NCBI GenBank assembly: GCA_963664305.2
Contig: CAXXLV010000002.1
Coordinates: forward strand, 768,001 to 832,000
DNA: 64,000 bases
From: an uncultured Aliarcobacter sp.
Lineage (GTDB): Bacteria; Campylobacterota; Campylobacteria; Campylobacterales; Arcobacteraceae
Reading direction: 5' to 3'
Of this stretch, positions 7,446 through 62,076 are shown piece by piece (within the stretch, counting starts at the first letter, position 1; each line of letters opens with the position of its first letter). Below the pieces are notes generated by a model that worked only from the letters and a program-made list of their open reading frames with translations, was not told the DNA's origin and searched no databases. Position numbers and translations under genes: made by a program.

Positions 7446-7486
7446 GCCGCTATGGTGAAATTGGTAGACACAAGGGATTCAAAATC
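7446..7486 (+). pseudogene. 5' half of host tRNA-Leu(CAA), left attachment site
   Basis: GCCGCTA-TGGTGAAATTGGTAGACAC-A-AGGGA-TTCAAAA-TC, then non-tRNA sequence; the 5' acceptor strand GCCGCTA pairs with TAGCGGT at 62066-62072. Confidence 0.93.
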
Positions 7487-7568
7487 GCAAGAGAAAGTAA
7501 TTTAAAAGCCTATAAATAGGTTTTAATTTGTTTTAGGTACGTAAAAAAGGTACACAATTTATTTATAT

Positions 7569-7652
7569 GGCTCTGTGGCGGAATTGGTAGACGCGTACGA
7601 TTCAAAATCGTATTCCACTGGAGTGCCGGTTCGATCCCGGCCAGGGCTACCA
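7569..7652 (+). tRNA. tRNA-Leu(CAA), intact, island-borne
   Basis: Acceptor GGCTCTG/CAGGGCT, anticodon arm TACGA-TTCAAAA-TCGTA, long variable arm, T arm GCCGG-TTCGATC-CCGGC, encoded ACCA. Confidence 0.95.
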
Positions 7653-7659
7653 TAATTAA

Positions 7660-7845
7660 TTATGATAGATTATCCTCGATATAATTGAGTACATCATCTC
7701 TAAGTATAAAATGTTTTACACCCACTTTAAATGATCTTAACTTTTTAAGTTTAATTAATTTTTTTGCAGTTGTTACTTTTATAAAACCTAATTCATCTAA
7801 TTCTTTCAATGAAAAAGAAATTCTTCTTGGTAATAATTCTTCCAT
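7660..7845 (-). CDS. excisionase-like HTH protein
   Basis: 61 aa basic protein with KLRSFKVGVKHFILRDDVLNY, typical of Xis/HTH_17; located at the island end. Confidence 0.75.
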   Translation of the reverse strand: MEELLPRRISFSLKELDELGFIKVTTAKKLIKLKKLRSFKVGVKHFILRDDVLNYIEDNLS

Positions 7846-7846
7846 T

Positions 7847-9040
7847 TTATACTCCTACTTTATCATCGTTTAGCACTTTTGCAAGTTTTTCTGTTTCTTT
7901 TTCAATCCAATAAAAAATTGAATTTTTCTCACTTGCAACTTTTTCATAATTCCATTTTCCTTTATTTCCCCAGATTTGTAGCCATTTTATAGCCCTTTTA
8001 TCTCCAAGTCCAATAGATTCTCTTACAATTTTAGTTTCCTTCATCAAATCACTCTGATTAATTTTTTCATTAAGATCTTTTAAAATATCACTTACAATTT
8101 TTATAAAAAAATATTCTTGCTGACTGATATTTGATTCTTCAAAATCTACTTCAATCAAAGAAATCGTTTCCTCCTCATATTGAAAAGCCTTCGATTGAAT
8201 TAAATTATCTCGATCTTTTTTAACATGAAATAGCCAAGTATTACTTTGATCATTCTTAGTGATCAAAATTTGATAATCAAGATCTCTTTTCCATTCAAAA
8301 CTTCCGTGATAATCCGCAGTTTGTCCATCTCTAACACGATGTGAATGATGGATTATTATTGGTGTTGAACCTTGACTTCTAAGAATTCTAATTACATCAA
8401 ATAATTCTTTTAATTTTACTCTTTCTTTTCTACTTCCATCATATACAAAATGAGAGCCACTATCTATCACAATCATTTTACCTTTATTTTTATCTCCATC
8501 TAAAACAAGTTCTTTTAAAGCGTCTATTGCTTCCATTTCTTGTATAATTTCATTGCCAAGTAGGTAATCAAATTTTCCATCTCCCCATTTTTCTGCAAGT
8601 TGATCATATCTTCGTTTTTTTAAACTACTTAAACAATTATCAAAATCAAAGAAAATTGCACCACTTATATTCTTATTTTCTAATCCATAATTTGCAAAAG
8701 CAGTGCACATTAATGTTTTTCCTATTCCAGTGTCTCCAAATAACATAATATTTTTTCCTGATTCAAGTAAATTAGGATAAATAAATTGTGGATTTTCCTC
8801 TATCTTAGAAGTTTTTTCCAAACTTAATCTAAATTTTTTAAGTTTTTCAATCCCTTGTATTTTACTGTTTTGATTTTCAATGTTTAATTCTTCAATTTTT
8901 TTCTGAATTATTTGCCTTTGATTTTCATTTACATGAGAACTTCTTTTCAATTCTTCTAAATCTTTAATTTTTTTACTTTGAATTCTTTTTTTTATAACTT
9001 CATATTCAATTTTTTCAATTTCAATATTTAAATTTTCCAT
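7847..9040 (-). CDS. RecA-like AAA ATPase (RepA/AAA_25-type helicase)
   Basis: Walker A GDTGIGKT, VIDS, IIHH...R and HGSFEW motifs. Confidence 0.7.
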   Translation of the reverse strand: MENLNIEIEKIEYEVIKKRIQSKKIKDLEELKRSSHVNENQRQIIQKKIEELNIENQNSKIQGIEKLKKFRLSLEKTSKIEENPQFIYPNLLESGKNIMLFGDTGIGKTLMCTAFANYGLENKNISGAIFFDFDNCLSSLKKRRYDQLAEKWGDGKFDYLLGNEIIQEMEAIDALKELVLDGDKNKGKMIVIDSGSHFVYDGSRKERVKLKELFDVIRILRSQGSTPIIIHHSHRVRDGQTADYHGSFEWKRDLDYQILITKNDQSNTWLFHVKKDRDNLIQSKAFQYEEETISLIEVDFEESNISQQEYFFIKIVSDILKDLNEKINQSDLMKETKIVRESIGLGDKRAIKWLQIWGNKGKWNYEKVASEKNSIFYWIEKETEKLAKVLNDDKVGV

Positions 9041-9042
9041 CT

Positions 9043-9732
9043 TTAGGCAATCTCTTCTTTTATATAAAAATATAAGTAAAGCTGATTATTTATTCTTTTT
9101 CTTAGATTCTTAAATTGTGATGATAATTCTGATTCAATAAAATAAGAAAGATTTATATCTAATTTTTCACTAAGTTCTTTTATCTCTTCGAATGTAAGTT
9201 CAAATTTACTTTCTAAAGTTTTGATATGTTCAATAATAAGATTTGGCTCATCTTTTGCTAATTTTTTTAAATCTCTCACTGTAAAATCAATTTCATGATT
9301 TTCATATATGTCAGCCATAATCCAAATTTGAAAATTTAAAAGATTAATTTTTCTCTTTGAATCGAAAAGATTCTTAATATTATTTAGTAAACGCTGTTTA
9401 ATTTTATTAAAAACTTTAATATTACTATCTTCCTTATTTTCAAAAAAGCATTTTTTATTTTTTGTAATACTTTTTTTTATCTGTCTCAATGTTGCTTCAA
9501 TAGCCAACTTATAGCATAATTCAAAATCTATTTGATTTAAATATCCTCCTGTTTTATAAAAAAATTCTTCAACTTCTTCTTTCATTAACATATAAGTTAT
9601 TGAATCAACATTTGTTAATTCTTCTATCCAATCACTTTTTGTGAATGCATTAAATAGAAATGAAAATTGATTTTTATTTCTTTTTTTGCTATTATCGTTA
9701 GAAAAAGATTTTAATTGTGCATTTTTTCTCAT
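9043..9732 (-). CDS. hypothetical protein, first gene of the leftward operon
   Basis: 229-aa ORF with AAGGA RBS, 2 bp from the next gene. Confidence 0.6.
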   Translation of the reverse strand: MRKNAQLKSFSNDNSKKRNKNQFSFLFNAFTKSDWIEELTNVDSITYMLMKEEVEEFFYKTGGYLNQIDFELCYKLAIEATLRQIKKSITKNKKCFFENKEDSNIKVFNKIKQRLLNNIKNLFDSKRKINLLNFQIWIMADIYENHEIDFTVRDLKKLAKDEPNLIIEHIKTLESKFELTFEEIKELSEKLDINLSYFIESELSSQFKNLRKRINNQLYLYFYIKEEIA

Positions 9733-9960
9733 TTTTAATCCTTTTTATTTTTGATTAGAGTGTAATTTAGAATTAAGTTTGCAGACCCTATTTATAAATT
9801 ACACTCTTTATTTATATTTTTATTACTTTTAATACTACATATCACCCTCTCCAAACAAAATCTATAAACTATTATTGACTTTCTATTTTTTTAATCTCAT
9901 TTTAATGTGAATTAATCGTAAAATCACTATAATCATTTATTGAGTATATATTTCAATATA

Positions 9961-9976
9961 ATACTCATATGAGTAT
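9961..9976. promoter_or_regulatory. palindromic operator candidate for the XRE repressor
   Basis: Perfect 16-bp palindrome ATACTCATATGAGTAT between divergent genes, overlapping a TATAAT. Confidence 0.55.
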
Positions 9977-9996
9977 AATATTATATAACGATTAAT

Positions 9997-10707
9997 TTGT
10001 CAAGGGGTACAAATATGGATTTTGCAAATAAATTTGAATCAATTCAAAAAAAATTAAATCTTTCACAAAAAGATTTATCAATTAAATTAGGATTATCAAC
10101 AAACGCTATTTCACAATATATCACTGGAAAAAGGAAACCCGATTACACAACCATACAAAAATTAATAAATTTAGGAGTTTCTCCATACTTTTTATTTTCT
10201 GATGGGAAAGAACCTTTTGATCCAAATTTTCAATTATTTGCAGAAGCAGTTAAATATATTAATAGTGAAAATGAAAAAGAATTAATAGAACCTATTAGTG
10301 AATTTGTAAATAAACATAAATTAATTAACTTAATCAAATCAAAAATTGAAAAACTAAAAGGGCAAAGTTTTTTTGAAAAAGTAATTGAAGAATTTTCGAA
10401 TAAAGGTGAAAAAACTCTTAAGTTTTTATATTACTTTATTCTCTATATTGAAAGAACTCAAAAAAATTTTGATTTTTTAAATATTAAAAAATCATTCATT
10501 GATGAACTTGAAAAATTTGAACTTTCAAAAAAGGATAGAATTATATCATTTGAATTAAAAGAAAATGATAGAAAAAGGTTAATTGAATGGATTGAAAATG
10601 AATTGGATGATTCTTCAATTTTTGAAATAATTTCAAACATTGAACAATTAAAAAAAATAATAAAAGAAGAATTAAATATTTTCAACAAATATTTAATTCA
10701 GCTTTAA
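9997..10707 (+). CDS. XRE-family HTH repressor (start probably ATG at 10015)
   Basis: LSQKDLSIKLGLSTNAISQYITGKRKP HTH_3 motif; divergent from the Xis/helicase operon. Confidence 0.85.
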   Translation: MSRGTNMDFANKFESIQKKLNLSQKDLSIKLGLSTNAISQYITGKRKPDYTTIQKLINLGVSPYFLFSDGKEPFDPNFQLFAEAVKYINSENEKELIEPISEFVNKHKLINLIKSKIEKLKGQSFFEKVIEEFSNKGEKTLKFLYYFILYIERTQKNFDFLNIKKSFIDELEKFELSKKDRIISFELKENDRKRLIEWIENELDDSSIFEIISNIEQLKKIIKEELNIFNKYLIQL

Positions 10708-11531: not shown

Positions 11532-11532
11532 A

Positions 11533-11631: not shown

Positions 11632-11654
11632 GCTAGATAGGCTTTTAGCCTATC

Positions 11655-12359: not shown

Positions 12360-15065
12360 TTAAACCAAATTAATCAAACTCTCTCTTAATTTTTTACTTT
12401 CTTGACTTTCATTAGTTGCAAATCTAACTATTGGAATATTATATTTTTCTAATATTTCATCCTTTAATTTATCCCGCTTTAATTGAGTTGGATTATTTTC
12501 ATGGTACTCATAACCATCAACTTCAATAGCTAACACTATCTGTTTATCGATTTTGCTATATATTATAAAGTCTATATGAGTATTTTCATTATTTACAAAT
12601 TTAATTTCTTTTTCATTCAATAAACTATAATCTTTAACTATTCTATATAATTGCATATGTAATACAACATCTAAGTGAAGAAAACTTTCATCTTCTAATA
12701 CTTCATCAATTACAAGACACATTAAATTTTCAGATTTATGTTCAGATACATTTTTATACTTTTTTTGATATTTATTTAAATGTGAAGAATAACTTTTATA
12801 AAGTAAATCAAATATTGAGTAAATTTTACTTTCTAGAACATCACAGTTATAATATTTAATATAACCTATTAAATCTTTCATATTTTTATTTTTTTCTCTA
12901 TCTGAAACTACAACATAAAGCTTATCTACAGCTCTAGAGATTGCAACATTCAATAAGTTCTTATCATCAGCAAATTCATCTTCATCATTTACTACAGTAC
13001 TTAAAATAATTATATTTTTTTCACGACCTTGATATTTATGTACAGTATCAACTTCTATTTCTTTATTATTATTCTTATACTCTTCATTTATTTTATCTAC
13101 TTGTTTTCTAAATGGAGAGATTATTCCTATACTAGTATCTTTTAAATCAGGTAATATCTCATTAGTAATTACATCAATTTGACGTTGATTGTATTTTCCT
13201 CTTGCATGATTTCCTTCTACAGTATTAAATAAAACTAAAGATGATTCATTTTCATTTTCAAATTTTGTTAAAACTATTAGCTCATTATTATAAAATTTCT
13301 TATTACAAAAACCTATAATTTTTGGATTACATCTATAATGCTCTCTTAAAAGAGTTTTAGGAACATCTTTAAAAAGTTTAGTAATTGATAGTAACAAATT
13401 ATTATCATAATGATATGATTCATTAACTTTATATTGATTATAAACAATTTGAATTAAATCTTTTGTTTCCTTTGTAACTACATGAGGTAGTTGTTTTAAA
13501 TCACCAACAATAACTACATTTTTTGCACAAGATAAAGCTAAAGAACCTGCAACCACATCAACTTGTGAAGATTCATCTATTATCAAATAATCATATAAAT
13601 AGCTATTTCCTGTAGAGTTTCTTAATGAATGAGTTGTACTTAAAACAATAGGATATTCTTCAATAAAACTTCCAAAATCTTTCCATAAGACATCACTATT
13701 AAAACTTGTTCTCTTATTTGCAAATTTATATTTATTTGATATAAACCTTTTTAATAAAAACATTGACTTTTGAGTATATAACTTCATTTTATTTTCAAAA
13801 TCAAAGTTTGATAACTTACTTTCAAAAGTATTTATTTGTTTAGTTATTTCAATCTCTTTATTTTCATAAAATAAACTTTGAAGATATTCAATTATAGAGT
13901 TTATTGGATATTTGTAAATTGAAAAAGAAAAGAGCCTATATTTTATGAGATTCTTTATTTTAAACAAAAGCGTTATCTTTTTATTTAAAAGTTGAATATT
14001 CTCAAACTCTGCCCATAAAGAAAGTATAGAATCAATATCGTACTTGTTGAAACTTTTAAAATATTCTATATTTTTATCTTTTTTATCATAGTAATCTAAA
14101 AAATGTTTTTTTTCTACTTTAAATTCTTCATATAGTTGTTTTTGTAATGCTAATTCATTCTGAGTAGATAACATCTCTTTAAGAGATTTACTATCTTGAC
14201 TTACTTCTTTATATAGTTTATTAAAATCAACCTCAGTTTTTTCACTTACAAAGTTAGGATAACTGCTATCTTGATTATTAAAAAACTCTTCTTGATTATC
14301 TTTATTACCTAAAAATGCTGATATAAAAGACAAATCGTGACTACTTAATTTATCATATACATTTTTTGTTGCCGCATTATTATTTGACACAATAGCAACT
14401 GTTTTTTCTTGCATTATAATATTTGATAAAATATTTAATATAGTTTGTGTTTTACCAGTACCTGGAGGTCCTTCAATAATACTTATTTGATTTGTTAGTG
14501 CATTTTCTACAGCTTTTTCTTGACTTAAATTAAAACCAAAAGGAAAGATAATTGTAGATCTATTTTCAAAAGTATCAATACTACTAGAAGCTAAATATTT
14601 AGATAAGACACTATCTTCACTTATGAAAGTCATTTTTTTATATTGTTTATCTAAAAATCCAACTTCTTCTTTATCATCCGTATTATTTAATCTTTCTGCT
14701 AAACTTTTTAAATACTCTAATACACTATTTACCCTATTATCATTTAAACAGTTTTTTTCTATTTTAATACGCTTTTTATCATATAATTTATTAGTACCAT
14801 TTTCATAAAAAATCTTTAAATGACTTTTAAAATCAAGAATTCTAACTATTTTGAATAATAGTTTTCCATCTAAAAAAACAATACAACTATTTAAGTTTAT
14901 CTCTATGGGATTTTCCATTATCTTAACTTTCTCTAAACTATATGAATATTTAGTATCATTACTTTTAAAAACTACATCAACTTTATTTTTATTAATATCA
15001 AAACTTTCAATCTCTTCTGTTTTATCAACATCATTTATTAGAATTAAATACTTATTTATATCCAT
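12360..15065 (-). CDS. SF1 (UPF1/DNA2-like) helicase with C-terminal DUF2726-like nuclease domain
   Basis: GPPGTGKT, IIDESSQ, VGDLKQL, TVHKYQGRE and NVAISRA; C-terminal HIDF...AIEVDGYEYH...RDKLKD. Confidence 0.88.
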   Translation of the reverse strand: MDINKYLILINDVDKTEEIESFDINKNKVDVVFKSNDTKYSYSLEKVKIMENPIEINLNSCIVFLDGKLLFKIVRILDFKSHLKIFYENGTNKLYDKKRIKIEKNCLNDNRVNSVLEYLKSLAERLNNTDDKEEVGFLDKQYKKMTFISEDSVLSKYLASSSIDTFENRSTIIFPFGFNLSQEKAVENALTNQISIIEGPPGTGKTQTILNILSNIIMQEKTVAIVSNNNAATKNVYDKLSSHDLSFISAFLGNKDNQEEFFNNQDSSYPNFVSEKTEVDFNKLYKEVSQDSKSLKEMLSTQNELALQKQLYEEFKVEKKHFLDYYDKKDKNIEYFKSFNKYDIDSILSLWAEFENIQLLNKKITLLFKIKNLIKYRLFSFSIYKYPINSIIEYLQSLFYENKEIEITKQINTFESKLSNFDFENKMKLYTQKSMFLLKRFISNKYKFANKRTSFNSDVLWKDFGSFIEEYPIVLSTTHSLRNSTGNSYLYDYLIIDESSQVDVVAGSLALSCAKNVVIVGDLKQLPHVVTKETKDLIQIVYNQYKVNESYHYDNNLLLSITKLFKDVPKTLLREHYRCNPKIIGFCNKKFYNNELIVLTKFENENESSLVLFNTVEGNHARGKYNQRQIDVITNEILPDLKDTSIGIISPFRKQVDKINEEYKNNNKEIEVDTVHKYQGREKNIIILSTVVNDEDEFADDKNLLNVAISRAVDKLYVVVSDREKNKNMKDLIGYIKYYNCDVLESKIYSIFDLLYKSYSSHLNKYQKKYKNVSEHKSENLMCLVIDEVLEDESFLHLDVVLHMQLYRIVKDYSLLNEKEIKFVNNENTHIDFIIYSKIDKQIVLAIEVDGYEYHENNPTQLKRDKLKDEILEKYNIPIVRFATNESQESKKLRESLINLV

Positions 15066-15071
15066 ATAACT

Positions 15072-16550
15072 TTACTTTATCTTTCTTAAGTTCTCTAATA
15101 TCTTCACCATTGCCAAAGTATCCAGTTTGCAATACTCTAAAAGTGAGTTTCTTAGTTTTAGTTTCTCTTTTTCATCTAGTGAACCTAGTCTTGAAAAAGC
15201 ATTCATAGCTTGGCTTCCATTTTGAACACCATCAAGTTCTTTGTAGGCTTTCTCAAACTCTGGAACAAGTGCTGGAAGTACATATTTGATAGAGTAACTT
15301 CCTTGCATAGCTGGAGTTACATACCACTTTTTTTGAAAAGGTACCATGAGGTCTTGCATATTTTCATTTATAGCCAATAAGTGTCCACTAAACTCTTCAA
15401 ATAATGTTGCCAATCTTTTTATAACACCTTTTTCAAAACTCATGTTATAAGCTAATACAGTTACATCACTTGGAATATCTTCACATAGTCTAAGAGCGAG
15501 TTCATATCTACTATCAACACTATCTTGTGCTAAATACTCTTTGTGTTCTAATGTTCCATCTTCATATTCAATATGAAGTGAGTATTGAAATGGTATTTGC
15601 TCAAAAGGTTTTATACCTTTAAACTGTGGTATTGCTTGTTGATAGGTTTCAAAGTCTAAATGATATATTGGGTAAGTAAGACTTTGTAAAAATGATTTAA
15701 TATTTTCTATATCTATATATGTGATTTTTGATTTATAGTTTTCAACAGCTTGTGCTTGAATAGAAGTCATATCAAAGTCATGTGGTACATCATCTATATT
15801 TATAATACCTCTTTTATAAAGTTCAATTTGTTTTTTACTTCCAAGATTAAAAATATTAAATATAGAATAATCAGGTATTTGTCTTTGAACTTTCCAACAA
15901 TACTCTTTTCCATCACATTCATAAGGACTATTACAATGTTTACCTATATCTATATTTGGTTCGTTTTCTTTATCATTTAAATATGTTTCAAACTCTTTTA
16001 AAATATTTGGAATATTTGATTGCATTGATATAACATCATTTGTAACATCAACTATTTTAAAAAGTTGATGTATATCTAAGTCATCACCTCTTATATATTC
16101 ATTATTTATATAAATTACATTTGCACTTTTTATTTTTAAACCTAAATTTTTAAGTACATAATACTGAATAGATACATCATGTAAATATATATCTTTTACT
16201 TCAGTAGAACTTTTAACTTCATAAATAGAGACTTCACCATTAGAAATAGTTAAAATATCTACCATAATTAAAATACCTGAAAAGTTAAAAGTAGCTTCAT
16301 AGATATTCTCTATTCCCTCATCAAGTAACTGTTTTGTAGTAGCTATCATCTCATCATAGTTTTTTGAATATGGCACTTCTTTTCCATCAGGGAAAAGCTG
16401 ACAAGCAAAATCTCCAACTATGTTTCCAGTTTCAAATATAGCTTGGGCTGATTCATCTGGTGGTGTTAATACACTTGGCTTATATTTTTTAAGCCAAAGT
16501 GCTTTGGGGCATTGAATGCCTTTTGTGTAGAGGGATTTAGATAGGTTCAT
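15072..16550 (-). CDS. DUF2779-family protein (RecB/Cas4-like nuclease plus RNase H-like domain)
   Basis: LSKS..QCPKALWL, VDIL...EVKSS, C..PYEC...YC, LDFET, YNMSFEK and YCKLDTLAM. Confidence 0.8.
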   Translation of the reverse strand: MNLSKSLYTKGIQCPKALWLKKYKPSVLTPPDESAQAIFETGNIVGDFACQLFPDGKEVPYSKNYDEMIATTKQLLDEGIENIYEATFNFSGILIMVDILTISNGEVSIYEVKSSTEVKDIYLHDVSIQYYVLKNLGLKIKSANVIYINNEYIRGDDLDIHQLFKIVDVTNDVISMQSNIPNILKEFETYLNDKENEPNIDIGKHCNSPYECDGKEYCWKVQRQIPDYSIFNIFNLGSKKQIELYKRGIINIDDVPHDFDMTSIQAQAVENYKSKITYIDIENIKSFLQSLTYPIYHLDFETYQQAIPQFKGIKPFEQIPFQYSLHIEYEDGTLEHKEYLAQDSVDSRYELALRLCEDIPSDVTVLAYNMSFEKGVIKRLATLFEEFSGHLLAINENMQDLMVPFQKKWYVTPAMQGSYSIKYVLPALVPEFEKAYKELDGVQNGSQAMNAFSRLGSLDEKEKLKLRNSLLEYCKLDTLAMVKILENLRKIK

Positions 16551-19063
16551 TAATTAATCTTATTATTAATTTCATCAATTAATATTGTAGACATTTCAAA
16601 AGATTCTAAATCTTGTTTTTTTAACCATTCTTTACATTCTGCTCTTGTCATACTTGAGGTAGGTGTATATTCTGATAATAATATAGCCGTATTTCGACTA
16701 AGTCCTAGTTCAATAAATGATAGTTGAGTTTTCTGTGAAACACCAAATTCTAACCAAATAGTTAATTCAGGAATTTCTTCTAATAATTTTTCTTTTCCTT
16801 TTTCTTTCAAAACCAATCTTAAAATATCCATATAGCAAGATGAATATTTAGCAAATTTAAATCTAGCATATGTTTCTATATCTGCCATTACATCTCTAAT
16901 AACACTATCTCTTTTTTTTCTTTTACCCCAGTATTTTAAGCTTTTTTGTATCATAAAAGATAACTTATAACCTCTTATCCATCTAACAATTAAAGAAGCA
17001 TGATAATAAGATACTCCATTAAAATCTCCAGAAAGATGAGTATTTACTATTTCCACAATTTTTTGAAATGACTCTACAGCGTTATCAGAGTGAATATCAT
17101 CAGGAATAAATTTTTTAAACTTTGTTTCACTATTTAAAAACAGATATAATTCCTGTTGAGCAATAGGACTAATACCTACATGTTTTTTTAATAATGCATC
17201 AGGAATAGTTATGTTTTCTTTCAATTTCGAGAAAGTAGATTCAAGCTGTTTTTCTTTTTTTTCATCTTTTATAAGATTACTTAACTTATTATCTAGCCAC
17301 CTTGTATAATAAAAATTAAATGCATACTCGAATGACATATTATTATTTTTTGATAACTCTTCTCTTGGTGTTCCCTTATCTATAAAAGCTAAAAATTCAT
17401 CAAAATTATTATTAATAATTGTTGTCGCTTTAATGATTTCATTTTTCTTATTTTGTAAAGAAGGTATAGTATTCCATTTATTCGTATCTATACAAATAAT
17501 ATTACCTTGAAATTCTTTACCTAATCTTCCTGCTCGCCCTGCTAAGTTCCAAAAATCAGTTTGTGTCATATCTAATTTTGTTGCCCTTTTAGGTTTTCTA
17601 ATAAAAATATTTTTTGCTGGTAAATTAACTCCTTCTAGTAATGTTGAAGTGCAAAAAATATATTTTATTTCACCTTGTTCAAATAGCTTTTCTATTTCTT
17701 GTCGAATTATTAATGGCATATTTCCATAATGAAAAGCAATTCTCTTTCCTAAAACTTTTACTAAATTATAATTTGGATGAATACTATCTTTTACTAGTTT
17801 AATCAATTCGTTAATTTTCTTATTATCTGTAACAATATCATCTATTAAAATATTGAAAAGCTTAATTGCATGTTCTTCCGTATAAGAAGGTTTATATTGA
17901 TATATTAAATTACCTCCTTCTTTATTAGCAAGTTTTTGAATAATTTTTACTAATCTTTGAGCTTCTTGAATACTTTCATCAAAACTAAAATTAGCAATTT
18001 TAAACTGTCCAAAATTACTAACTAAATCTATTTTCCAGTTTTTAGTACTGCCAGATTCCGAAGATACAAATAATAGATTTTGATTAACTGCTATATAATC
18101 TTTATTAACTTTATCATGTTTTTTATTTTCAATATTAGGCAAATTTTCAAATAATATTTCTGGATTTTTAGTAAAAGGTGAAGCAAATATAGTTTGAATA
18201 TTTTCATTATTTTCAATTACTTCTATAAGTTTTTCTTCAACTAATATACCTCTATGTCCTTGTTCTACTTGTTGTGCTTCATCAACAATAAGTGTATCAA
18301 TCTTAGTTTGATTATCAACTAAAAACCAATGTAATCTTTCTTGAGTAAACACAAAAATTTTTTTTGAAAAAGTTTCTTCAGGAATCTTTGGTACTGTAGA
18401 TAAATATATATTTTCAAGATTTTCTTTTTTTAATAGTTTTCTTATATCATTTTCAACTTGATTTATTAAAGCTCTTGTTGGCACTAAATATATAATAGTC
18501 TCATCATTACTATTTATTATTTTATCTAAAAGAATCTGACTTAGAATAAATGATTTTCCAGAAGAAGTAGGTGAAGATATACTAATAAATTGATTACTTT
18601 TAACTTTTGAATATACTTCACTTTGAAAACTATTCAAAGAAAGAACTTTACCATTTATTAGGATAGTATTGTGTAAATTGTTATTAATAATCTTCAATTG
18701 TAAAATTGAAGATAACTTTTCAAAATAATTTTTTTCAATTAAATTTTTATCTATAGCTAACTCAATTGTTCTATTGTTTGTTAAATTATTTAAAATTACA
18801 GCACAGGACTCTTTCTGTACAATATTTGAATCTTCATAGTTAATTATGGTTTGTGCAATTCTTAAAGCAGTTTCCATATGTAATGTTTCATTAGACTTTG
18901 ATAAAATACTTGCTATTGAAATTACATTATTAATATCTATTGTTTCATGTAAATTATTTTGAAGTTTAGTAAATTGACTAAGAACTGAATATCGTAAAAG
19001 TTTCTTATATTGGTCTTGAAAACTGTCAAGAGAATAAAGCTTTGTTGAAATATTTTCATTCAT
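16550..19063 (-). CDS. hamB: Hachiman helicase (Ski2-like DEAD/DEAH)
   Basis: SPTSSGKS, VDEAQ, CTSTLLEGVNLPA and NLAGRAGR; directly downstream of a DUF1837 gene. Confidence 0.85.
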   Translation of the reverse strand: MNENISTKLYSLDSFQDQYKKLLRYSVLSQFTKLQNNLHETIDINNVISIASILSKSNETLHMETALRIAQTIINYEDSNIVQKESCAVILNNLTNNRTIELAIDKNLIEKNYFEKLSSILQLKIINNNLHNTILINGKVLSLNSFQSEVYSKVKSNQFISISSPTSSGKSFILSQILLDKIINSNDETIIYLVPTRALINQVENDIRKLLKKENLENIYLSTVPKIPEETFSKKIFVFTQERLHWFLVDNQTKIDTLIVDEAQQVEQGHRGILVEEKLIEVIENNENIQTIFASPFTKNPEILFENLPNIENKKHDKVNKDYIAVNQNLLFVSSESGSTKNWKIDLVSNFGQFKIANFSFDESIQEAQRLVKIIQKLANKEGGNLIYQYKPSYTEEHAIKLFNILIDDIVTDNKKINELIKLVKDSIHPNYNLVKVLGKRIAFHYGNMPLIIRQEIEKLFEQGEIKYIFCTSTLLEGVNLPAKNIFIRKPKRATKLDMTQTDFWNLAGRAGRLGKEFQGNIICIDTNKWNTIPSLQNKKNEIIKATTIINNNFDEFLAFIDKGTPREELSKNNNMSFEYAFNFYYTRWLDNKLSNLIKDEKKEKQLESTFSKLKENITIPDALLKKHVGISPIAQQELYLFLNSETKFKKFIPDDIHSDNAVESFQKIVEIVNTHLSGDFNGVSYYHASLIVRWIRGYKLSFMIQKSLKYWGKRKKRDSVIRDVMADIETYARFKFAKYSSCYMDILRLVLKEKGKEKLLEEIPELTIWLEFGVSQKTQLSFIELGLSRNTAILLSEYTPTSSMTRAECKEWLKKQDLESFEMSTILIDEINNKIN

Positions 19064-19066
19064 TAT

Positions 19067-19993
19067 CTAAACTCCTAATTCTGCTAAGAAATTATCTCTA
19101 AACTCTTGAACACTTGGAAATGGTAAAATAAACATATGTATTATAAAACTATCCAAATAAATATGTTCATTAATTTGCTCTTTAACCTTAGCTTTCCAAT
19201 CTGATATTTTTAAATTAACTTCATCAATAACATCTTGAATAATTTTTGAATTAGGAGTATTAGGATATTTATTAAAATCAAATCCTACTAAAGCAACACC
19301 TCTATAATTTACACTATTATAATTTGGGTGATTTTTATCAAAATAGTTTACAAGTGCATTTTGGAATTCTTCATCTCTAACATCAATATTGTCATGTATT
19401 AATTCTATATCTCTATCTGTAGATGAATTATTTTGTAAGAAATTATTTAAACTTTCAAAACATTCTTTTATTGCAGTTCCATAAGTTTGATGAAGCTTAG
19501 ATTCACCCCAATATACTTCTAATTGACCATTTTCTCCTAATGTACAATGTATTCCATCTACACCATGATAATGAACATGTTGACTAGTTTTAAGTGGCAT
19601 TTTACAAATCAATTGTGGTATTTTTAAAAATTCTTCTACTAAAATATACAATAATAATTCACCACCTTCACCTGAAGTTTTTAAATGTGTAAAAAGGTTA
19701 ACAGCTTTTTCTCTAAGTTCAAGAGCATGTGCAAATCCACCTTCATCAGCATCTTTTTTTTGTGCAGCCATTATTTCACTTTTAGGTATTGCATAGTTTA
19801 TTACTCGATGAGATAAATATTTTGCAAAATCTTTAACCCTTGGTAATCCATTACCATTTAATTCTAAACAATGAACACAAGTAGTAGTTTTTGTATCATC
19901 AATTTCAGAATGAAGTTCTATAGTTTTTATATGTGCATTTATATTATCAGATTGACTACTTATTAATTCATCAAATTTTTCTCTTGTTAACAT
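19067..19993 (-). CDS. hamA: Hachiman nuclease (DUF1837)
   Basis: SGEGGELLLY...KMPLKT...HGVDGIH...WGESK, the DUF1837 signature. Confidence 0.88.
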   Translation of the reverse strand: MLTREKFDELISSQSDNINAHIKTIELHSEIDDTKTTTCVHCLELNGNGLPRVKDFAKYLSHRVINYAIPKSEIMAAQKKDADEGGFAHALELREKAVNLFTHLKTSGEGGELLLYILVEEFLKIPQLICKMPLKTSQHVHYHGVDGIHCTLGENGQLEVYWGESKLHQTYGTAIKECFESLNNFLQNNSSTDRDIELIHDNIDVRDEEFQNALVNYFDKNHPNYNSVNYRGVALVGFDFNKYPNTPNSKIIQDVIDEVNLKISDWKAKVKEQINEHIYLDSFIIHMFILPFPSVQEFRDNFLAELGV

Positions 19994-19997
19994 TCAT

Positions 19998-21818
19998 TTA
20001 ATCCTTACATAAAATATATGGCTCTATACCATAGTCTTGACATGAAGATATAAAACTACTTAATAACCAAACTAATTGAATCAAATGTGAATTAGGAATA
20101 GAACTTGTCAGCATTCTTTGTAATTTATTATCTAAAGAATTTTTACTAAAAAATGGTGTTGCAAGATAAATACGTTTTTTCGAATTAGTTTTAGAATAAA
20201 CTCTTTCCAACGAATCTTTAATTTCACTAAATGAATTAAAAACATTTCCATCTTTTCTTAAACGACAAATATTTGTTGACTCATAATTTTTACACCATTT
20301 GTCATTATACTTTATTTCATAATCTTTAATTGAAGCATTAACTCTACCAATATTTTTTAAAGCTTGAGAAACTACTTCATGCATTACACTTGCACTATAT
20401 TTATCTTTCTTCACAAATTTAGAATGAATAAATGATATACTATTTTCATCAATGTATATATGATCTGCCCATTCATTACCCATATCATCACAAATTAATA
20501 TTCCATTATTAAAGTTTTCTTCAACTCTATAAAACAATGAATTGGAAGGAAATCTGTTTAATAAATTAAAATGATTTTTCTGAGCTAAAGTTGCATTTTT
20601 TCCAGGTTTACACTTTTCGGAATCTATATCTCCTCCATTAAGTAAATTATTATTAGTTTCACAAATTGATAATATTTTATTAATATTCATTTGTGTTAAC
20701 AACTGTTTATCAGAAAAAGCATATTTACCTATATATGCATACTTTGGTTTATCAAAAATGATTGTGTAATTTTTATTTTCATTTATAAATTTTAAAATAG
20801 ATTCTTGCCCTTGGTCATCTAAATAAACCTTTTCAATTTGACTATTTTTTAAAGATATTGATTTATTATTTATTTTAAGTTCTCCAAATTTTTTCCCTTT
20901 TAATTGTATTTTATAAATACTATCACTAACATGTTCAATATGAAATATTTTTCTTAATGTAATAAATAATTTCTTTAAATCATCATTCTCTAATTTATGA
21001 GGTTGAGAATTTTGATCAAAATAGTACAAATCTCTAATACCATTTTCAATTTCATTTTCTAACTTATAAAAATGAAATAATATTCCAATTGGAGAAGAAT
21101 CATCCATAATATCTTTTAAATTTATTGGATTTGCAAAACCATTTATGAATTCACTTTCCACATCACTTTCCACATCAGAAATAATGCTTAGACACCAAGA
21201 AATATAATCATCTAATTTTGCCTTTGTAGATCGTTGACCAATTCGTGATGAATTTGGAGTTATTGAAAAAGTATCTCCTTGTTGATTTATTCTAATATTT
21301 CGAGGAACGGATCTACTTGAAGAAGTTAATGGCATAATTCCATTTAAATTATCTGCTTCATAACTTCTTGATCGTATAACCGCATCTGAAATTGTCATAT
21401 TTCCCATAGAAATCTTTTCATATTTTGTATTATCTGAAGCTTTAAAATGTACAAATTTATCATAATCAAAATAATCTATATAATTTTCTAATTCTTTTTC
21501 AATACCCGTTATATTTTTCTTACTGATAAATATATAGTTATCATTCTCAATAATTACTAAATATGCATATTTTATCTCATTTTCTTCAGTACCACATAAG
21601 AAAGAAGGTTCTTCATCGAATTTAAAAGACATTATTGAAAAAGAAATGTTTTCATTTATATCTGATTGTTTTTTTATTTCTTTAATTACATAATTTCCTT
21701 TTTTTTTGGTTGATAAATTTATAAATACTCTTGTTATCTTATTTTCTGACAGACTTTTTAATTTTTTATATATTTGTACACTTTTTGATAACTCAACATT
21801 TTGTAATTCTATTGACAT
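19998..21818 (-). CDS. uncharacterised 606-aa protein, possible C-terminal PD-(D/E)xK-like nuclease
   Basis: ICDDMGNEWADHI...FIHSK...HEVVSQALKN; 4 bp upstream of hamA. Confidence 0.55.
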   Translation of the reverse strand: MSIELQNVELSKSVQIYKKLKSLSENKITRVFINLSTKKKGNYVIKEIKKQSDINENISFSIMSFKFDEEPSFLCGTEENEIKYAYLVIIENDNYIFISKKNITGIEKELENYIDYFDYDKFVHFKASDNTKYEKISMGNMTISDAVIRSRSYEADNLNGIMPLTSSSRSVPRNIRINQQGDTFSITPNSSRIGQRSTKAKLDDYISWCLSIISDVESDVESEFINGFANPINLKDIMDDSSPIGILFHFYKLENEIENGIRDLYYFDQNSQPHKLENDDLKKLFITLRKIFHIEHVSDSIYKIQLKGKKFGELKINNKSISLKNSQIEKVYLDDQGQESILKFINENKNYTIIFDKPKYAYIGKYAFSDKQLLTQMNINKILSICETNNNLLNGGDIDSEKCKPGKNATLAQKNHFNLLNRFPSNSLFYRVEENFNNGILICDDMGNEWADHIYIDENSISFIHSKFVKKDKYSASVMHEVVSQALKNIGRVNASIKDYEIKYNDKWCKNYESTNICRLRKDGNVFNSFSEIKDSLERVYSKTNSKKRIYLATPFFSKNSLDNKLQRMLTSSIPNSHLIQLVWLLSSFISSCQDYGIEPYILCKD

Positions 21819-21830
21819 AATTTTTATCCT

Positions 21831-22667
21831 CTAAATAATTTCCAAAACACTCGTCCCATCACCCTTATGTTCAACCTTTATCTGCAATGGAATTCGCTCT
21901 TTTAGTGCTTCCACATGGGAAATCACACCTACCATCTTTCCTGAACTTTGTAGTTGATTTAGTGCTAGTTCTAAACTATCAGCATCTAGTGTCCCAAACC
22001 CTTCATATAAGAAAAGTGAATCTATACTTATCTTTTGACTTGCAAGGGCTGAAAGTCCAAGAGCAAGTGAAAGACTTACTATAAAACTTTCCCCTCCTGA
22101 GAGTGTACTTACAGGTCTTAATACATCCCCTTGAAAACCATCAATTATTTCTATTTCAAATAATTTATTTGAATCACTACTTCTTTGAAGTTCATATCTT
22201 GGACTTAGTATTTGTAAATGTTTATTTGATATATAGATAAGTTGGTCTAAAGTAATACCTTGGGCAAATTTAGCAAATTTATCTCCACTTGCTAAACCTA
22301 CCATTTCATTTAGTTTTATCCATACTTTAAATGCTTCTTTTTTCTTCTCTAACTCTTTGATTTTATCTTCATGTTTTTTCATATTTGAAGCATTGATTTC
22401 AAGCTCTTTTTCTAAACTACCTATTGATTTTTGAAGTTCGTCAATAGCTGTTTGTAACTCTTTTGATTCAACATAATAGATAATTTGTGGAGTTCCAGTA
22501 TCAAAAATATCTCCTGATATAACTAAAACTTCAACTTGTTTTTCTTTTATAATTTCTAAAAGCCAAGAAAGAAAAGCTTCATGCTCTTCAGCTCTACTTT
22601 TCCCCATAAAATTTTGACCAAGATGCCAATCAGATGTATGTAATAAACGCATAAATATCCTATACAA
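21831..22667 (-). pseudogene. SbcD N-terminus fused in frame to SbcC C-terminus (deletion remnant)
   Basis: LHTSDWHLG...SGDIFD (Mre11/SbcD) joined to LSGGESF...IDSLFLYEGFGTLD...ISHV (SbcC, Walker B D to Y). Confidence 0.85.
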
Positions 22668-38830: not shown

Positions 38831-38849
38831 GTATTTTTAATATGATAAT

Positions 38850-51302: not shown

Positions 51303-52037
51303 TTGATTATGGATAATATGAAAGTATCAGAGCAACTTAAAGATTTTATAAAAAATTATGAGAAATTAGAACTAAAGACATATCAAGATGAAGCTGGAGT
51401 TTGGACAGTAGGATATGGGCATACTGGTAAAAATATTGTTAAGAATATGACAATAACACAAAGCCAAGCGGATAGTTTCTTATCTAATGATTTAAGTAAA
51501 TTTGAAAGTACAGTTAATCAATATGTGAAAGTTCCACTTTCACAAAATCAATTTGATGCTCTAGTCGCTTTTTCTTATAATATAGGTATGGGTGGATTTA
51601 AAAATTCTACATTATTAAAACTATTAAATAATAGTGATTACGAAGGTGCTAGTTTAGAATTCCAGAAGTGGAATAAAATAACAATTAATGGTGAAAAAAA
51701 AACTTCTGATGGTTTATCTGTTAGAAGATATGATGAAGAAAATATTTTTAAAGATAATATTTATAATAGAACAGATATTGAAACTTATAGGCAAGAATTA
51801 TCTAAAGAAAATAATAATGAATCATCTACTGATACAGGAAATAATGACCAAGCTAATAATGATACAGAATATATGAAAGACCAAGATGGGAAAGATATAC
51901 CAGATATAAAAGATGGGACCTTAGTAGCAGATAGTGGACAAATAAAAACTGATGTAAATTATGATAAAGATAGCCAAACCTTGTTTTATGAAGATGAAAA
52001 TGGAAATTATCAAGTTTGGGAAAAAAAGGTTGCATAA
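51303..52037 (+). CDS. GH24 (phage-type) lysozyme with C-terminal conserved block
   Basis: YEKL...YQDEAGVWTVGYGHT, QNQFDALVAFSYNIG and GLSVRRYDE, then ADSGQIKTDVNY... Confidence 0.88.
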   Translation: MIMDNMKVSEQLKDFIKNYEKLELKTYQDEAGVWTVGYGHTGKNIVKNMTITQSQADSFLSNDLSKFESTVNQYVKVPLSQNQFDALVAFSYNIGMGGFKNSTLLKLLNNSDYEGASLEFQKWNKITINGEKKTSDGLSVRRYDEENIFKDNIYNRTDIETYRQELSKENNNESSTDTGNNDQANNDTEYMKDQDGKDIPDIKDGTLVADSGQIKTDVNYDKDSQTLFYEDENGNYQVWEKKVA

Positions 52038-59200: not shown

Positions 59201-60141
59201 ATGTATTCTATCGGATTAGATGTAAGCAAGTCAACAATTAATTGTTATATTCCCAATGGAGAAATTAATTTAGTAATAGATAATAATGAAAAATCATTAA
59301 ATCAATTTTATTTAAAACTTAAAAAGATTTATAAAAAAGATATTAATAAAATAGTTTTTATTTTTGAACCTACAGGAAGCTATTCTAGTTTATTAAAAAG
59401 TTTTTGTACCAAAAAAAGTATCAAAGCTTTTATCGTAAATCCAAAACAAAGTCATAACTTTGCAAAAGCTATAGCTCAAAGAAATAAATCAGATAAAATT
59501 GATGCACAAGTTTTATCAAAGATGATTTCTATTGCAACAAATAGTGATATTAAAGTTCCTGTATATGATGAAAATATAGAAAATATAAAAGATTATATGA
59601 GTTATTATAAGTTTGTTGTAAAGGAACTTGTACAAGCAAAAAATGTTCTTGAAGCAATGAGTAATAGCCAAACAAATAAGTATATTTTAAATTCACTAGA
59701 AAAGAAAATTGATGCTTTGCAAAAAGAGTCTTTGAAAATAATTGAAAAAATAAAAGAAATCATTTCACAAGATCCTTTTTTATTACAATCTTTTAATAAT
59801 ATTAAAACTATTAAAGGTGTTGGAGATATAACTGCTATTGTACTTTTACATCTATTTTTAAAGCAAATAATATCTTTAACAGGATTAGAACCAATAGCAA
59901 AATCTTCGGATAGTTCTATTAAATCAAAACCTAAAATATCAAAAGCTGGTTTAAATTATATAGAGGAACCATATTTATGAGTGCATTAAGTATAATAAGA
60001 TTTAATCCTAAGATTAAAGAATTTTATAATCGTTTAAAAGAGAATGGTAAACAATCAACCTTGGCTCAAGTTGTAGTTATGAGAAAATTAATTATTATTG
60101 CCCATTCCTTGTATAAAAATAATCAGGAATATATTAATTAA
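59201..60141 (+). pseudogene. IS110-family transposase, frameshifted
   Basis: IGLDVSK, FEPTGSY and KSDKIDA; frame breaks after ISKAG, and the tail FMSALSIIRFNP...MRKLIIIAHSL continues in another frame to 60141. Confidence 0.88.
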
Positions 60142-60311
60142 AATCATCAATAAAAGATTTTAATTTTTAAGGTGGCGACTAAATAGATCTTAGAAACAAA
60201 ACAACCTCTTGACTCAATATTAAAACTAACACCTTTTAGACCATAATACTAGATAATATTTTTACTAATTTTCTAAATCTTAATGTCATATATTAACTCC
60301 AATTATTTTAA

Positions 60312-60392
60312 TTAAAAAATCAAATATAATAAAATAAATGCTAAAAGTATTAAAAAAAGCCAATCAATTATTTCAAATTTAGTTTGATTCAT
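60312..60392 (-). CDS. 26-aa hydrophobic peptide, copy 2
   Basis: MNQTKFEIIDWLFLILLAFILLYLIF*. Confidence 0.55.
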   Translation of the reverse strand: MNQTKFEIIDWLFLILLAFILLYLIF

Positions 60393-60578
60393 AATTAACC
60401 TTATCAAATTTTTTTATAAGATTAAATATTATCAGATAAAATACTCACTATTTACTTTTTTTATTAATTAAAAAATAAATATAATTTTCTACAACTTACA
60501 AAACTGCAAAACTTATCAAAGATTGATATCGAAGAGCTTTCTTAATTATTTTGAAGAAAATTTAATAATCTCTTTAAA

Positions 60579-61871
60579 TTAATCTAAAATATTTAAAACT
60601 TCAAGAAGCTCTTTTTCTGTTTTAGTTGGAAATAAAATCTTTAATTGATTTAATTTTTCACTATCAATAGGCTTAGTTATTTGTTCATCAAAAATTTCAT
60701 CAAGCATAGCATCAATTACTTTACCAAAAGAATAATAATTAATTTTTCCATACCTAGTAGTAATAGTTTTATTTTGCTTATGTCCTAAAATTGCGCCAGT
60801 AATATCATCTCCTATTCCCATCCCATTTTTTAAATATGTTGCTATGCAATTTCTTATCTGATGTATTACTATTGATTTATAATTCCAATGATTTCTAATT
60901 GTTCCAATACTATAAGGTTCATTTTTATTATTAATTTTTGTAAAAATATATCCATTATCTTTAATTCCTATTGATTCTAAAACTTCTTTTAATCTATTAG
61001 ATAAATAATAAATCATATCAATTCTTGCTTTATTATTTATGGCTCTTACAGTATAAGTGTTTTCCTCAAAATTTATATCATTCCACTCTAAAGTTACAAT
61101 TTCACCGAATCTTCTACCATGCATCAAAAACATAAAAATTTCTCTAACAGGAGATAATGGATAATTTTTTAATTCTTTGAAAAGTTCTTTTATTTCATTT
61201 AAAGATAATGCTAAACCTCTTTCATTATTTAACGGTGGTAAATCTTTTTGAAGTGCAGGAGATGGAATATTAATTCCAAATTTTGCAGCTTTCATGTTAA
61301 AATATTTAAAAACTGGATTAACTGATTGATAAACACTTCGAGAAGTTCTCTCGGATAATCCTTCTTTTTTAATATTTAATACGATTTTATGTATGTCTTC
61401 TTCATCTATCATAGCAATAGGTTTATTCATTATTGATTTCAACCATTTATTGTGAAATTGTTCCAATCTTTTTTTGGGAAATTCTTTTTTATCATCTCTA
61501 GCTTGATATTGAGATACTTTATATTCTAAATAAAGCTCGAAAACTTTTGCATAAATCATATCTAATGTAAATTCTTGTTTTGAATATCTATTAATACTTA
61601 ATTCATTCATTAACATCTCATATTCTTTTGAAGCTTTCTTAATCGCATCTAATAATGTAATATCAGGATCAAAAATCATAGTCTTTTTACTTTGTATTCT
61701 TTTACCATTTATCATTTTTGATGCTCTTACTTGTATCTTGTAAGGCTTTGAAAATGTTATATTTGAATTTATTATAGTATTATCTTTAATTTTACTAGAT
61801 GGAATTTGTCCATCATCTTTATATGTTAAACCACTTGTATTAACTTTTTTTAAATCAAATTTTAAAAACAT
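60579..61871 (-). CDS. island tyrosine integrase
   Basis: HGRRFGE, HQIRN and LGHKQNKTITTRY; AGGAG RBS supports ATG at 61871; adjacent to the right att site. Confidence 0.92.
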   Translation of the reverse strand: MFLKFDLKKVNTSGLTYKDDGQIPSSKIKDNTIINSNITFSKPYKIQVRASKMINGKRIQSKKTMIFDPDITLLDAIKKASKEYEMLMNELSINRYSKQEFTLDMIYAKVFELYLEYKVSQYQARDDKKEFPKKRLEQFHNKWLKSIMNKPIAMIDEEDIHKIVLNIKKEGLSERTSRSVYQSVNPVFKYFNMKAAKFGINIPSPALQKDLPPLNNERGLALSLNEIKELFKELKNYPLSPVREIFMFLMHGRRFGEIVTLEWNDINFEENTYTVRAINNKARIDMIYYLSNRLKEVLESIGIKDNGYIFTKINNKNEPYSIGTIRNHWNYKSIVIHQIRNCIATYLKNGMGIGDDITGAILGHKQNKTITTRYGKINYYSFGKVIDAMLDEIFDEQITKPIDSEKLNQLKILFPTKTEKELLEVLNILD

Positions 61872-62023
61872 TATAAATACTCCTAAGAACACAAAATAGT
61901 ACACAAATAACTGTGTATTTATATATTCTATTGTATCTATTTATAGTTTACAAATCTTATAAGAACATCTATTTATTGGTATTTTTATAATATTTATATT
62001 CAGTTATATCTTTTTATAAATGT

Positions 62024-62076
62024 GATTCAAAATCCCTCGCTTCGGCGTGTCGGTTCGACTCCGACTAGCGGTACCA
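62024..62076 (+). pseudogene. 3' half of host tRNA-Leu(CAA), right attachment site
   Basis: GATTCAAAA-TCCCT-CGCTTCGGCG-T-GTCGG-TTCGACT-CCGAC-TAGCGGT-ACCA; no tRNA 5' half upstream. Confidence 0.93.

Follow-up and report, generated by a model that had tools for sequence, protein, structure and literature searches.

An island in an uncultured Aliarcobacter splits the tRNA-Leu(CAA) gene of its host and carries a complete tRNA-Leu(CAA) of its own

Analysis of a 64,000-nt stretch of DNA from an uncultured Aliarcobacter sp. (hereafter 'the window', meaning the whole stretch) revealed a host tRNA-Leu(CAA) gene cut in two by an insert of 54,537 bp (7487-62023). The insert, an apparent integrative defence island, contains a complete tRNA-Leu(CAA) gene of different sequence close to its left end. 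It is very probable that the island integrates in the anticodon loop of tRNA-Leu(CAA), splitting the gene, and that its own complete tRNA compensates for the loss. The same arrangement was found in other species of the genus, in host genes of different sequence.

The tRNA-Leu(CAA) gene of the host is split in its anticodon loop

Positions 7446-7486 and 62035-62076 of the window are the two halves of one tRNA-Leu(CAA) gene (Table 1). When the pieces were spliced, ARAGORN recognized an 83-nt tRNA-Leu(CAA) with a regular cloverleaf, as had been proposed in the original prediction (notes generated by a model from the letters of this DNA). The last 11 nt of the 5′ half, GATTCAAAATC, are repeated directly before the 3′ half, so that the two copies bound the island at its left and right attachment sites (attL and attR). 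This core corresponds to the 7-nt anticodon loop plus two base pairs of the stem on either side. It is present three times in the window (at 7476, at 7599 inside the island tRNA, and at 62024), against 0.17 copies expected by chance; none of 100 shuffles reached three copies. Beyond the 11 bp, attL and attR showed no similarity on either side, the sequence 3′ of the attL core was not tRNA-like, and neither ARAGORN nor Rfam called a tRNA at either junction. The host gene is therefore truly split, with only 11 bp duplicated and neither junction restoring the tRNA, which agrees with what had been claimed. In two further genomes containing a related island (G015 and G016), the switch from host-specific to common island sequence also falls at the 11-mer core. 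Upstream of the split gene lies a host gene of the HU family (7107-7385), the terminator of which is located at 7397-7428.

Comparison with other members of the genus (44 genomes, designated by G numbers; the window genome, G000, has 2.78 Mb in two contigs) provided the uninterrupted form of the gene. The exact 83-nt rebuilt gene is contiguous in G046 and G050, directly 3′ of the same HU-family gene; identity of the left flank to that of the window is 93% in G046 and 86% in G050. The 5′ half of the window is identical to that of the contiguous genes of G019, G001, G008, G046 and G050, and its 3′ half to that of G046 and G050, the 3′ halves of G019, G001 and G008 being slightly different. In G001 the site is cleanly empty: alignment with the window runs as far as 7486 on the left flank and begins at 62024 on the right, with an overlap that equals the 11-bp core. 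Island-free relatives thus carry the contiguous gene that the original prediction had expected. Its further proposal, that excision restores the host tRNA, also fits, since precise recombination between the two outer cores is predicted to recreate exactly the gene of G046 and G050.

The two halves have not decayed: all 83 positions (83/83) are identical to the intact gene of G046 and G050. This would be in line with halves that are transcribed separately and joined or paired in trans, like archaeal split tRNA genes, although it fits a recent insertion as well. Split tRNA genes of the archaeal type have flanking complementary sequences, a feature the window halves fail to show. No significant complementarity was found between the sequence following the 5′ half and that preceding the 3′ half (the longest exact match was 8 nt), and the predicted duplex had an energy of -15.4 kcal/mol, compared with -13.2 ± 3.1 kcal/mol for shuffled sequences, 41 of 200 of which did equally well or better. 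Pairing of the halves in trans was rejected because the duplex energy falls inside the shuffle range. No promoter was evident for the 3′ half, and we know of no trans-splicing of tRNA halves in bacteria. A functional role in trans for the separated halves is thus extremely improbable.

The island-borne tRNA-Leu(CAA) and the putative attachment-site arms

The only tRNA called by ARAGORN in the window is the complete tRNA-Leu(CAA) at 7569-7652, which lies inside the left end of the island behind a spacer of 82 bp (7487-7568), as originally described. Its Rfam score was 54.6 bits, against a gathering score of 29, and no other RNA family was detected in the window at gathering thresholds. Its own copy of GATTCAAAATC lies at 7599-7609. 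The island tRNA and the split host gene are only 69% identical. A different tRNA is thus supplied, in agreement with the replacement that had been proposed; since the anticodon is the same, however, the replacement would be an isodecoder, not an isoacceptor.

The tRNA had also been described as foreign. It clearly differs from the gene it accompanies, but the native gene that occupies the syntenic locus in G009 shares 98% identity with it, and those of G002 and G017 share 93%. In G023 and G017 an island-type tRNA lies at the syntenic locus between the same flanking genes, with 91% and 93% identity, respectively, to the island tRNA over the aligned stretch. The replacement tRNA would therefore be foreign only as an allele of another clade within the genus. 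The original prediction had regarded the finding of this tRNA at the locus in island-free relatives as a refutation of its claim; it was found there in distant species but not in near ones, and the split stands.

The spacer, considered to form the P′ arm of the attachment site, contains a conserved hairpin (7504-7524) followed by a T-rich run; in an alignment of six islands, changes in the hairpin were mostly one-sided, with weak covariation. Transcription of the orphan 5′ half may terminate at this hairpin. Two direct repeats, AGGTAC(R)(Y)AA, follow at 7535-7544 and 7548-7557, both blocks being conserved in all six islands. They resemble two direct repeats, AGAACACAAA and AGTACACAAA, present at the other end of the island in the P arm. 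These two sets of repeats are putative arm-type integrase sites on both arms of the attP, although those of the P′ arm can alternatively, or additionally, be read as a candidate promoter region for the tRNA. The motif GTACRYAA was found eight times in the window on both strands, three of them in the attachment-site arms, a count that involves circular reasoning, these sites being the source of the motif. A consensus scan of 7300-7900 that is not adapted to this phylum detected no sigma-70-type promoter before either tRNA.

The arrangement recurs in other species of the genus

The 44 genomes were searched with two patterns (5′ half followed by the core, and core followed by the T loop), and the loci found were then read. 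An orphan 5′ half followed by the spacer and a full tRNA was present in six genomes (G000, G003, G014, G015, G016 and G059). In all of them the full tRNA starts 123-147 bp downstream of the start of the orphan 5′ half. Both host halves together with the integrase were found for three (G000, G015 and G016); the integrases of G015 and G016 are intact and 81% identical to that of the window.

The G016 island, of about 22.4 kb, splits a host gene of the same type as that of the window (type H), while the G015 island splits a gene of the type of the island-borne tRNA (type I); insertions therefore exist in different host alleles. The integrase/attR modules of these two islands are nonetheless 99.94% identical over 3524 bp, the similarity stopping at the core. 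The near-identity of the modules in different host types indicates that the element was transferred between species recently, and that its insertion is independent of the stem sequences of the host gene, which need not match. In G014 the left end is about 90% identical to that of the window, and shared and different cargo form a mosaic over at least 20 kb. The assembly of this genome comprises 30 contigs and includes the left junction twice; the right end and the 3′ half were not found in it (the core plus T-loop pattern gave no orphan 3′ halves).

These comparisons also bear on the possibility that the island is composite, the spacer and tRNA (7487-7652) being the relic of an older element beside which a classical 54-kb island landed. 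The window island is indeed a mosaic (it holds a resolvase, part of a second recombinase and an IS110 element), and tandem relics exist at this hotspot, at the right ends of the islands of G003 and G059. However, insertion of a classical island would leave a restored tRNA at one of the junctions, which is the case at neither. The spacer and tRNA are, in addition, contiguous with shared island sequence in G014, G015 and G016; in G014 about 90% identity extends up to position 7960 of the window, and shared blocks resume at 9073. The window has just three cores, one at either end of the island and one within its tRNA, and no relic attachment junction was found at 22668-23095, where similarity to the 13-kb island of the G003 type stops. 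A composite origin is thus very unlikely.

Outside the comparison set, integrase homologues with 63-84% identity were found on one contig of a metagenome-assembled genome and on metagenome contigs, adjoining the 11-mer core and then a tRNA 3′ half. This order was seen in five of the six metagenome loci with a core in the available upstream sequence (the contig of the metagenome-assembled genome recurs among these loci), and at least four different 3′-half sequences were involved. A full tRNA was present in none of the 12 close metagenome loci, on contigs that do not include the attL ends of these elements. Among IMG/VR viral contigs only one integrase relative was detected, with 25% identity, and no phage form was found; all integrase matches in plasmids were below 60% identity (the best about 25%), and no plasmid form was found. 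A 1544-nt contig from run X3 spans positions 7457-8100 of the window with two differences and contains the same attL junction, although this metagenome may not be independent of the source of the window.

Proposed mechanism and role of the island-borne tRNA

According to the mechanism proposed, the attP would share only 11 bp with the host gene, and integration would leave the 5′ half at attL and the 3′ half at attR. The loss of the host gene would be made up for by the island's own tRNA-Leu(CAA), located 82 bp from the crossover. On the circle, the integrase (pointing away) would be followed by the P arm, the core, the P′ arm and the tRNA (pointing away). While the element is integrated, the only leucine tRNA with a CAA anticodon in the cell would be that of the island. 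Loss of the island by a route other than precise excision would leave the cell without tRNA-Leu(CAA), so that the tRNA would also act as a stabiliser. By carrying a whole gene instead of a 3′ half, the island could use hosts with differing tRNA-Leu(CAA) stems, because only the anticodon loop region must match. Judging from the genes and sites present, integration is likely to be catalysed by the window integrase, the island tRNA is likely to be expressed, charged and needed by the host, and the element can probably still excise.

ARAGORN detected 54 tRNA genes in G000, a count that covers all but 8000 bases of contig C1; the tmRNA tag of this genome would fit Campylobacterota. The leucine set comprises one CAA gene (that of the island), two UAA genes, one UAG gene and one GAG gene. 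The check for other Leu-CAA genes advised in the original prediction thus returned none besides 7569-7652, and its claim that UUG decoding by a CAA tRNA depends on the island would hold as far as gene content goes. A full tRNA-Leu(CAA) was present in 42 of the 44 genomes, with the exact core in 38 of them and with a C at the first loop position in four (confirmed by ARAGORN). Since 42 of 44 genomes keep the full gene, and the two exceptions are incomplete (65% and 74% complete), the distribution argues for tRNA-Leu(CAA) being under selection in the genus. UUG makes up 6.6% of the leucine codons in host open reading frames (ORFs), or 6.5 per 1000 codons, and 7.4% of those in island ORFs. Wobble may allow tRNA-Leu(UAA) to read UUG. 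Because UUG is rare and tRNA-Leu(UAA) may read it, dependence on the island may take the form of a fitness effect rather than lethality.

The scarcity of UUG and the two tRNA-Leu(UAA) genes would also suit a different role for the island tRNA, in which it compensates for nothing and the host lives without tRNA-Leu(CAA), its UUG codons being read by tRNA-Leu(UAA). The tRNA might then be a hitch-hiker, acquired for instance when an excision from a type-I host was aberrant. It might also offer further islands a spare landing pad, or serve against anticodon nucleases as a decoy or replacement. Its sequence is nearly that of a sister clade's native gene (98% identity to that of G009), and reuse of att-like sites within islands is shown by the tandem arrays and relics at this site in G003 and G059. 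A counter-defence function has also been raised in the report on phages that supply their own tRNA (PMC10865867). On the other hand, the retention of tRNA-Leu(CAA) across the genus speaks against its being dispensable, every one of the six genomes with an orphan 5′ half has a full tRNA at a near-constant distance from it, and the spacer and tRNA move with the island end in different hosts. Finally, the 150 nt upstream of five native type-I genes (in G002, G023, G017, G024 and G009) were, in a comparison by eye, unlike the island spacers; a capture that included the native upstream region or the promoter along with the tRNA is therefore not supported. Absence of compensation is thus considered unlikely.

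Several points nevertheless weigh against splitting with compensation by the island tRNA. A second Leu(CAA) gene might conceivably lie in the 8000 bases of contig C1 mentioned above, and the split tRNA itself may be dispensable, UUG being rare and tRNA-Leu(UAA) having two genes. The core exists in three direct copies, which would permit recombination in more than one way, and the chimeric right ends of the G003 and G059 islands (see below) show that alternative products of this kind, or else other rearrangements, do occur. The island yielded no candidate for an excisionase. In one metagenome locus (L068), an integrase 75% identical to that of the window has the P arm and the core upstream of it, but what follows these is sequence other than tRNA; the locus could represent insertion at a secondary site or a different arrangement. 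The L068 contig ends about 190 nt past the core. Neither the empty site nor the circle junction was found in contigs of four public runs, in which most matches were tRNA 5′ halves of other organisms.

Decayed and tandem forms of the island

Genomes G003 and G059 share a 13-kb island (93-95% identical) that has the usual left end and tRNA but lacks the integrase. Its cargo consists of AbiE, a DUF2779 protein, an HNH protein, an OLD-family ATPase and an SbcCD-like pair. The right end (L038 ~6340-6720 in G003; L060 ~13600-13990 in G059) contains, in this order, a P-arm-like repeat, a degenerate core that is altered in its first base, another spacer and the 5′ half of another type-I tRNA. The point at which this 5′ half is fused to the 3′ half of the host gene is the core in G059 but lies in the T arm in G003, and neither chimeric tRNA is called by ARAGORN. 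The simplest reading is that both genomes once contained a tandem pair of islands, the second of which would have been lost when its own tRNA recombined with the host fragment at the end. Whatever the order of events, the anticodon loop of the island's own tRNA can enter rearrangements, and host halves can be stranded permanently.

Diversity of tRNA-Leu(CAA) at the target locus

The syntenic locus 3′ of the HU-family gene contains at least five sequence types of tRNA-Leu(CAA) in the genus, with 65-79% identity between types. The control tRNA-Leu(TAG), of the same class, was 91-100% identical over its full length in all of the 38 genomes (of 44) in which it was found. In a tree of the left flank (~1.9 kb from 19 genomes, a single locus with partial sampling), type H appeared in both major clades, and G003 (type H, split) was nested among type-I species. 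These patterns, and the forms lacking an integrase, are compatible with repeated replacement of the resident gene by islands.

A tentative explanation, for which the odds appear to be against us, is that split-and-replace islands drive a permanent turnover of tRNA-Leu(CAA) in the genus. An island would split the resident gene, supply another allele, and then lose its integrase or rearrange as in G003 and G059, where the integrase-less island holds the only intact tRNA between stranded or chimeric host halves; the island allele would so become the tRNA of the lineage. If true, this would account for the presence of at least five divergent types at the locus versus the conserved tRNA-Leu(TAG). 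It would also account for the carriage of a whole gene, since a 3′ half alone could not pair with the 5′ halves of divergent host genes. Mobile islands would then directly bring about the replacement and diversification of tRNA genes within the genus. A search by eye upstream of the five native type-I genes found no spacer-like relic, which leaves turnover unproven. A similar idea of replacement has been put forward for Sinorhizobium meliloti, another phylum with other elements: that report describes host tRNA genes replaced by those of integrated phage-related elements and proposes tRNA diversification by this route (PMC11476347).

Relation to known systems

The mechanism proposed appears to match a published split-and-replace strategy and would not be a new principle. 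The original prediction held that splitting is best known from archaeal or regulatory cases, a view that missed tRNA-dependent lysogeny in temperate actinobacteriophages (PMC10865867; Guerrero-Bustamante and Hatfull, mBio 2024). In those phages the attP and an attB inside a tRNA gene share 8-17 bp, the tRNA is not rebuilt, and genetics showed that the phage-encoded cognate tRNA is required for lysogeny. Examples are Fionnbharth K4, cluster L, Cain K6, BrutonGaster/OneUp, Mollymur and Gaia X; Gaia targets tRNA-Leu-CAA, the isotype found here, with an 8-bp core (PMC10865867).

The likeness to the window island extends to a tyrosine integrase (with catalysis here presumed), an attB inside a tRNA gene, a short core (11 bp here) with no tRNA rebuilt at attL or attR, an element-borne tRNA with the same anticodon, and putative arm-type sites flanking the core (PMC10865867). 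Unlike these systems, the window element lacks phage structural genes, is apparently not a temperate phage, and is known from sequence alone; its family resides in an Arcobacter-like genus and enters host tRNA genes of clearly different sequence. Between the window integrase and those of the phages, the relationship apparent is that of the tyrosine-recombinase fold. The same paper suggests that the strategy may be more widespread, citing the Lj965 prophage of Lactobacillus johnsonii, a Firmicute, in which reportedly no tRNA is rebuilt and a cognate tRNA is encoded, as in the window island (PMC10865867). Beyond the papers cited, no non-phage islands with replacement tRNAs, and no cases in this phylum, were found in the open-access literature, as judged, for papers that use the term tRNA-dependent lysogeny, from the titles and abstract openings of those listed.

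What would be new here is the occurrence of the strategy in a non-phage element of an Arcobacter-like genus, with a replacement tRNA of sister-clade type, decayed tandem forms and a diverse tRNA-Leu(CAA) locus. Split-and-replace, experimentally shown in 2024 only for temperate actinobacteriophages, would thereby extend to a family of non-phage defence islands. The 11-bp anticodon-loop core would let one integrase family enter tRNA genes with widely differing stems. The boundaries of islands of this kind would be missed or placed wrongly by island-finding programs that look for a regenerated tRNA together with a displaced fragment.

Integration within tRNA genes is said to have been divided by Williams in 2002 into sublocation classes, crossover in the anticodon loop among them. 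P4 reportedly integrates at leuX in Escherichia coli, which places P4-type islands at the 3′ end of tRNA-Leu(CAA). Such islands have the same target gene as the window island, but they leave the tRNA intact and use the 3′ end of the gene, not the anticodon loop. In classical islands generally, the attP carries the 3′ part of the tRNA and the gene is regenerated, whereas the attP deduced for the window island shares 11 bp only and the gene stays split. Features common to the window island and to classical islands and prophages of tRNA genes (see the Islander database, PMC4383910) are a tyrosine integrase, crossover in the anticodon loop and direct repeats that bound the element inside the tRNA gene.

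Gene content of the island

The features of the island are listed in Table 1. The G+C content is about 22-27% across the whole window, and composition does not set the island apart. Families of capsid, portal, terminase or tail proteins were not detected, either with Pfam among island ORFs of at least 80 aa or among the 33 of these compared with PHROGs. The sole phage-like matches were the endolysin, the repressor-like helix-turn-helix protein, the integrase, the SbcC/SbcD-like nuclease remnant and a weak Sak4-like ATPase. Because phage structural families are absent and the cargo consists mostly of defence systems, the insert appears to be an integrative defence island, not a prophage.

The integrase ORF is intact, its start being 120 bp away from the attR core. 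Because homologues align from residue 12, the protein probably begins near 61871. The ORF at 21831-22667, which combines the beginning of an SbcD-like protein with the end of an SbcC-like one, is best seen as the remnant of an internal deletion because the islands of G003 and G059 hold the intact pair (397 and 1193 aa). The gene at 42939-46493 is the first of an operon of ORFs of unknown function, the last of which encodes a phage-type lysozyme (51303-52037).

Table 1. Features of the island and of the split host gene, in window coordinates
Feature	Coordinates	Strand	Evidence or remarks
Host 5′ half: acceptor strand, D arm, 5′ anticodon stem, anticodon loop	7446-7486	+	Last 11 nt are the attL core
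attL copy of the 11-bp core GATTCAAAATC	7476-7486	+	Motif search
P′ arm/spacer, 82 bp between attL core and island tRNA	7487-7568	+	Alignment of six islands
Island-borne complete tRNA-Leu(CAA), 'type I', CCA encoded	7569-7652	+	ARAGORN, Rfam
AAA_24/AAA_25-type ATPase	7847-9040	-	Maintenance/regulation module (7847-10707)
ORF, function unknown	9043-9732	-	Maintenance/regulation module
HTH_3 repressor-like protein	9997-10707	+	Maintenance/regulation module
Mokosh-like AAA_11/AAA_12 helicase with DUF2726	12360-15065	-	Defence block (12360-22667)
DUF2779 protein	15072-16550	-	Defence block
Hachiman HamB	16550-19063	-	E=2.5e-261
Hachiman HamA	19067-19993	-	E=2.8e-116
PDC-S71	19998-21818	-	E=4.6e-180
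Fused SbcD-N/SbcC-C apparent remnant, 278 aa	21831-22667	-	~56 first residues of SbcD-like nuclease plus ~200 last residues of SbcC-like ATPase
ParA-type ATPase	23095-23757	+	
NikA-like ribbon-helix-helix protein	23826-24119	+	
AbiEii-family nucleotidyltransferase toxin	34781-35533	-	
Two tandem SUKH/SMI1-KNR4 immunity-type proteins	38052-39338	-	No recognisable toxin gene identified alongside
1184-aa protein, EruA-like NACHT N-terminus	42939-46493	+	Match below curated cut-off
Avs2-type STAND NTPase, 1546 aa	53099-57739	-	E=8.5e-132
IS110-family transposase, apparently split in two frames (59201-59980, 59977-60141)	59201-60141	+	Between Avs2 gene and integrase
Tyrosine integrase, 441-aa ORF	60579-61904	-	Pfam Phage_integrase, residues 234-389; phrog_1 integrase, E=2.5e-25
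P arm: two direct repeats, AGAACACAAA and AGTACACAAA	61886-61907	+	Just upstream of integrase start; repeat family D4
attR copy of the 11-bp core GATTCAAAATC	62024-62034	+	Motif search
Host 3′ half: 3′ anticodon stem, long variable arm, T arm, acceptor strand, CCA	62035-62076	+	

Other observations at leucine tRNA genes of the genus

The four genomes with a C instead of a T at the first position of the anticodon loop (G013, G052, G055 and G048) lack the exact 11-bp core. An island-type tRNA was present in none of these four and in six of the 38 genomes with the exact core, numbers too small for a test. The C variant could be a resistant target allele.

In G046 the intact tRNA-Leu(CAA) is followed directly downstream by a gene for a P4-type integrase of 427 aa (L058, 43-1326, minus strand), with the domains Arm-DNA-bind_3, Phage_int_M and Phage_integrase; it is 25% identical to the window integrase over 350 aa. 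The sequence 3′ of tRNA-Leu(CAA) in G046 is not syntenic with the right flank of the window, and the downstream sequence of G008 and G050 is similar to it. Since a P4-type integrase adjoins the intact gene in G046 and the downstream sequence is non-syntenic, tRNA-Leu(CAA) appears to be a hotspot also for a classical island family that uses its 3′ end. Four genomes (G046, G009, G043 and G050) contain a full tRNA-Leu(TAG) and a second, partial copy of it (positions 30-85 or 32-85, 91-100% identity). In G046 the two copies lie at C1:236781-236865 and 271322-271377, with about 34.5 kb between them. These displaced 56-nt 3′ fragments of tRNA-Leu(TAG) appear to mark classical islands that cross over in the anticodon loop and thereby regenerate the tRNA.

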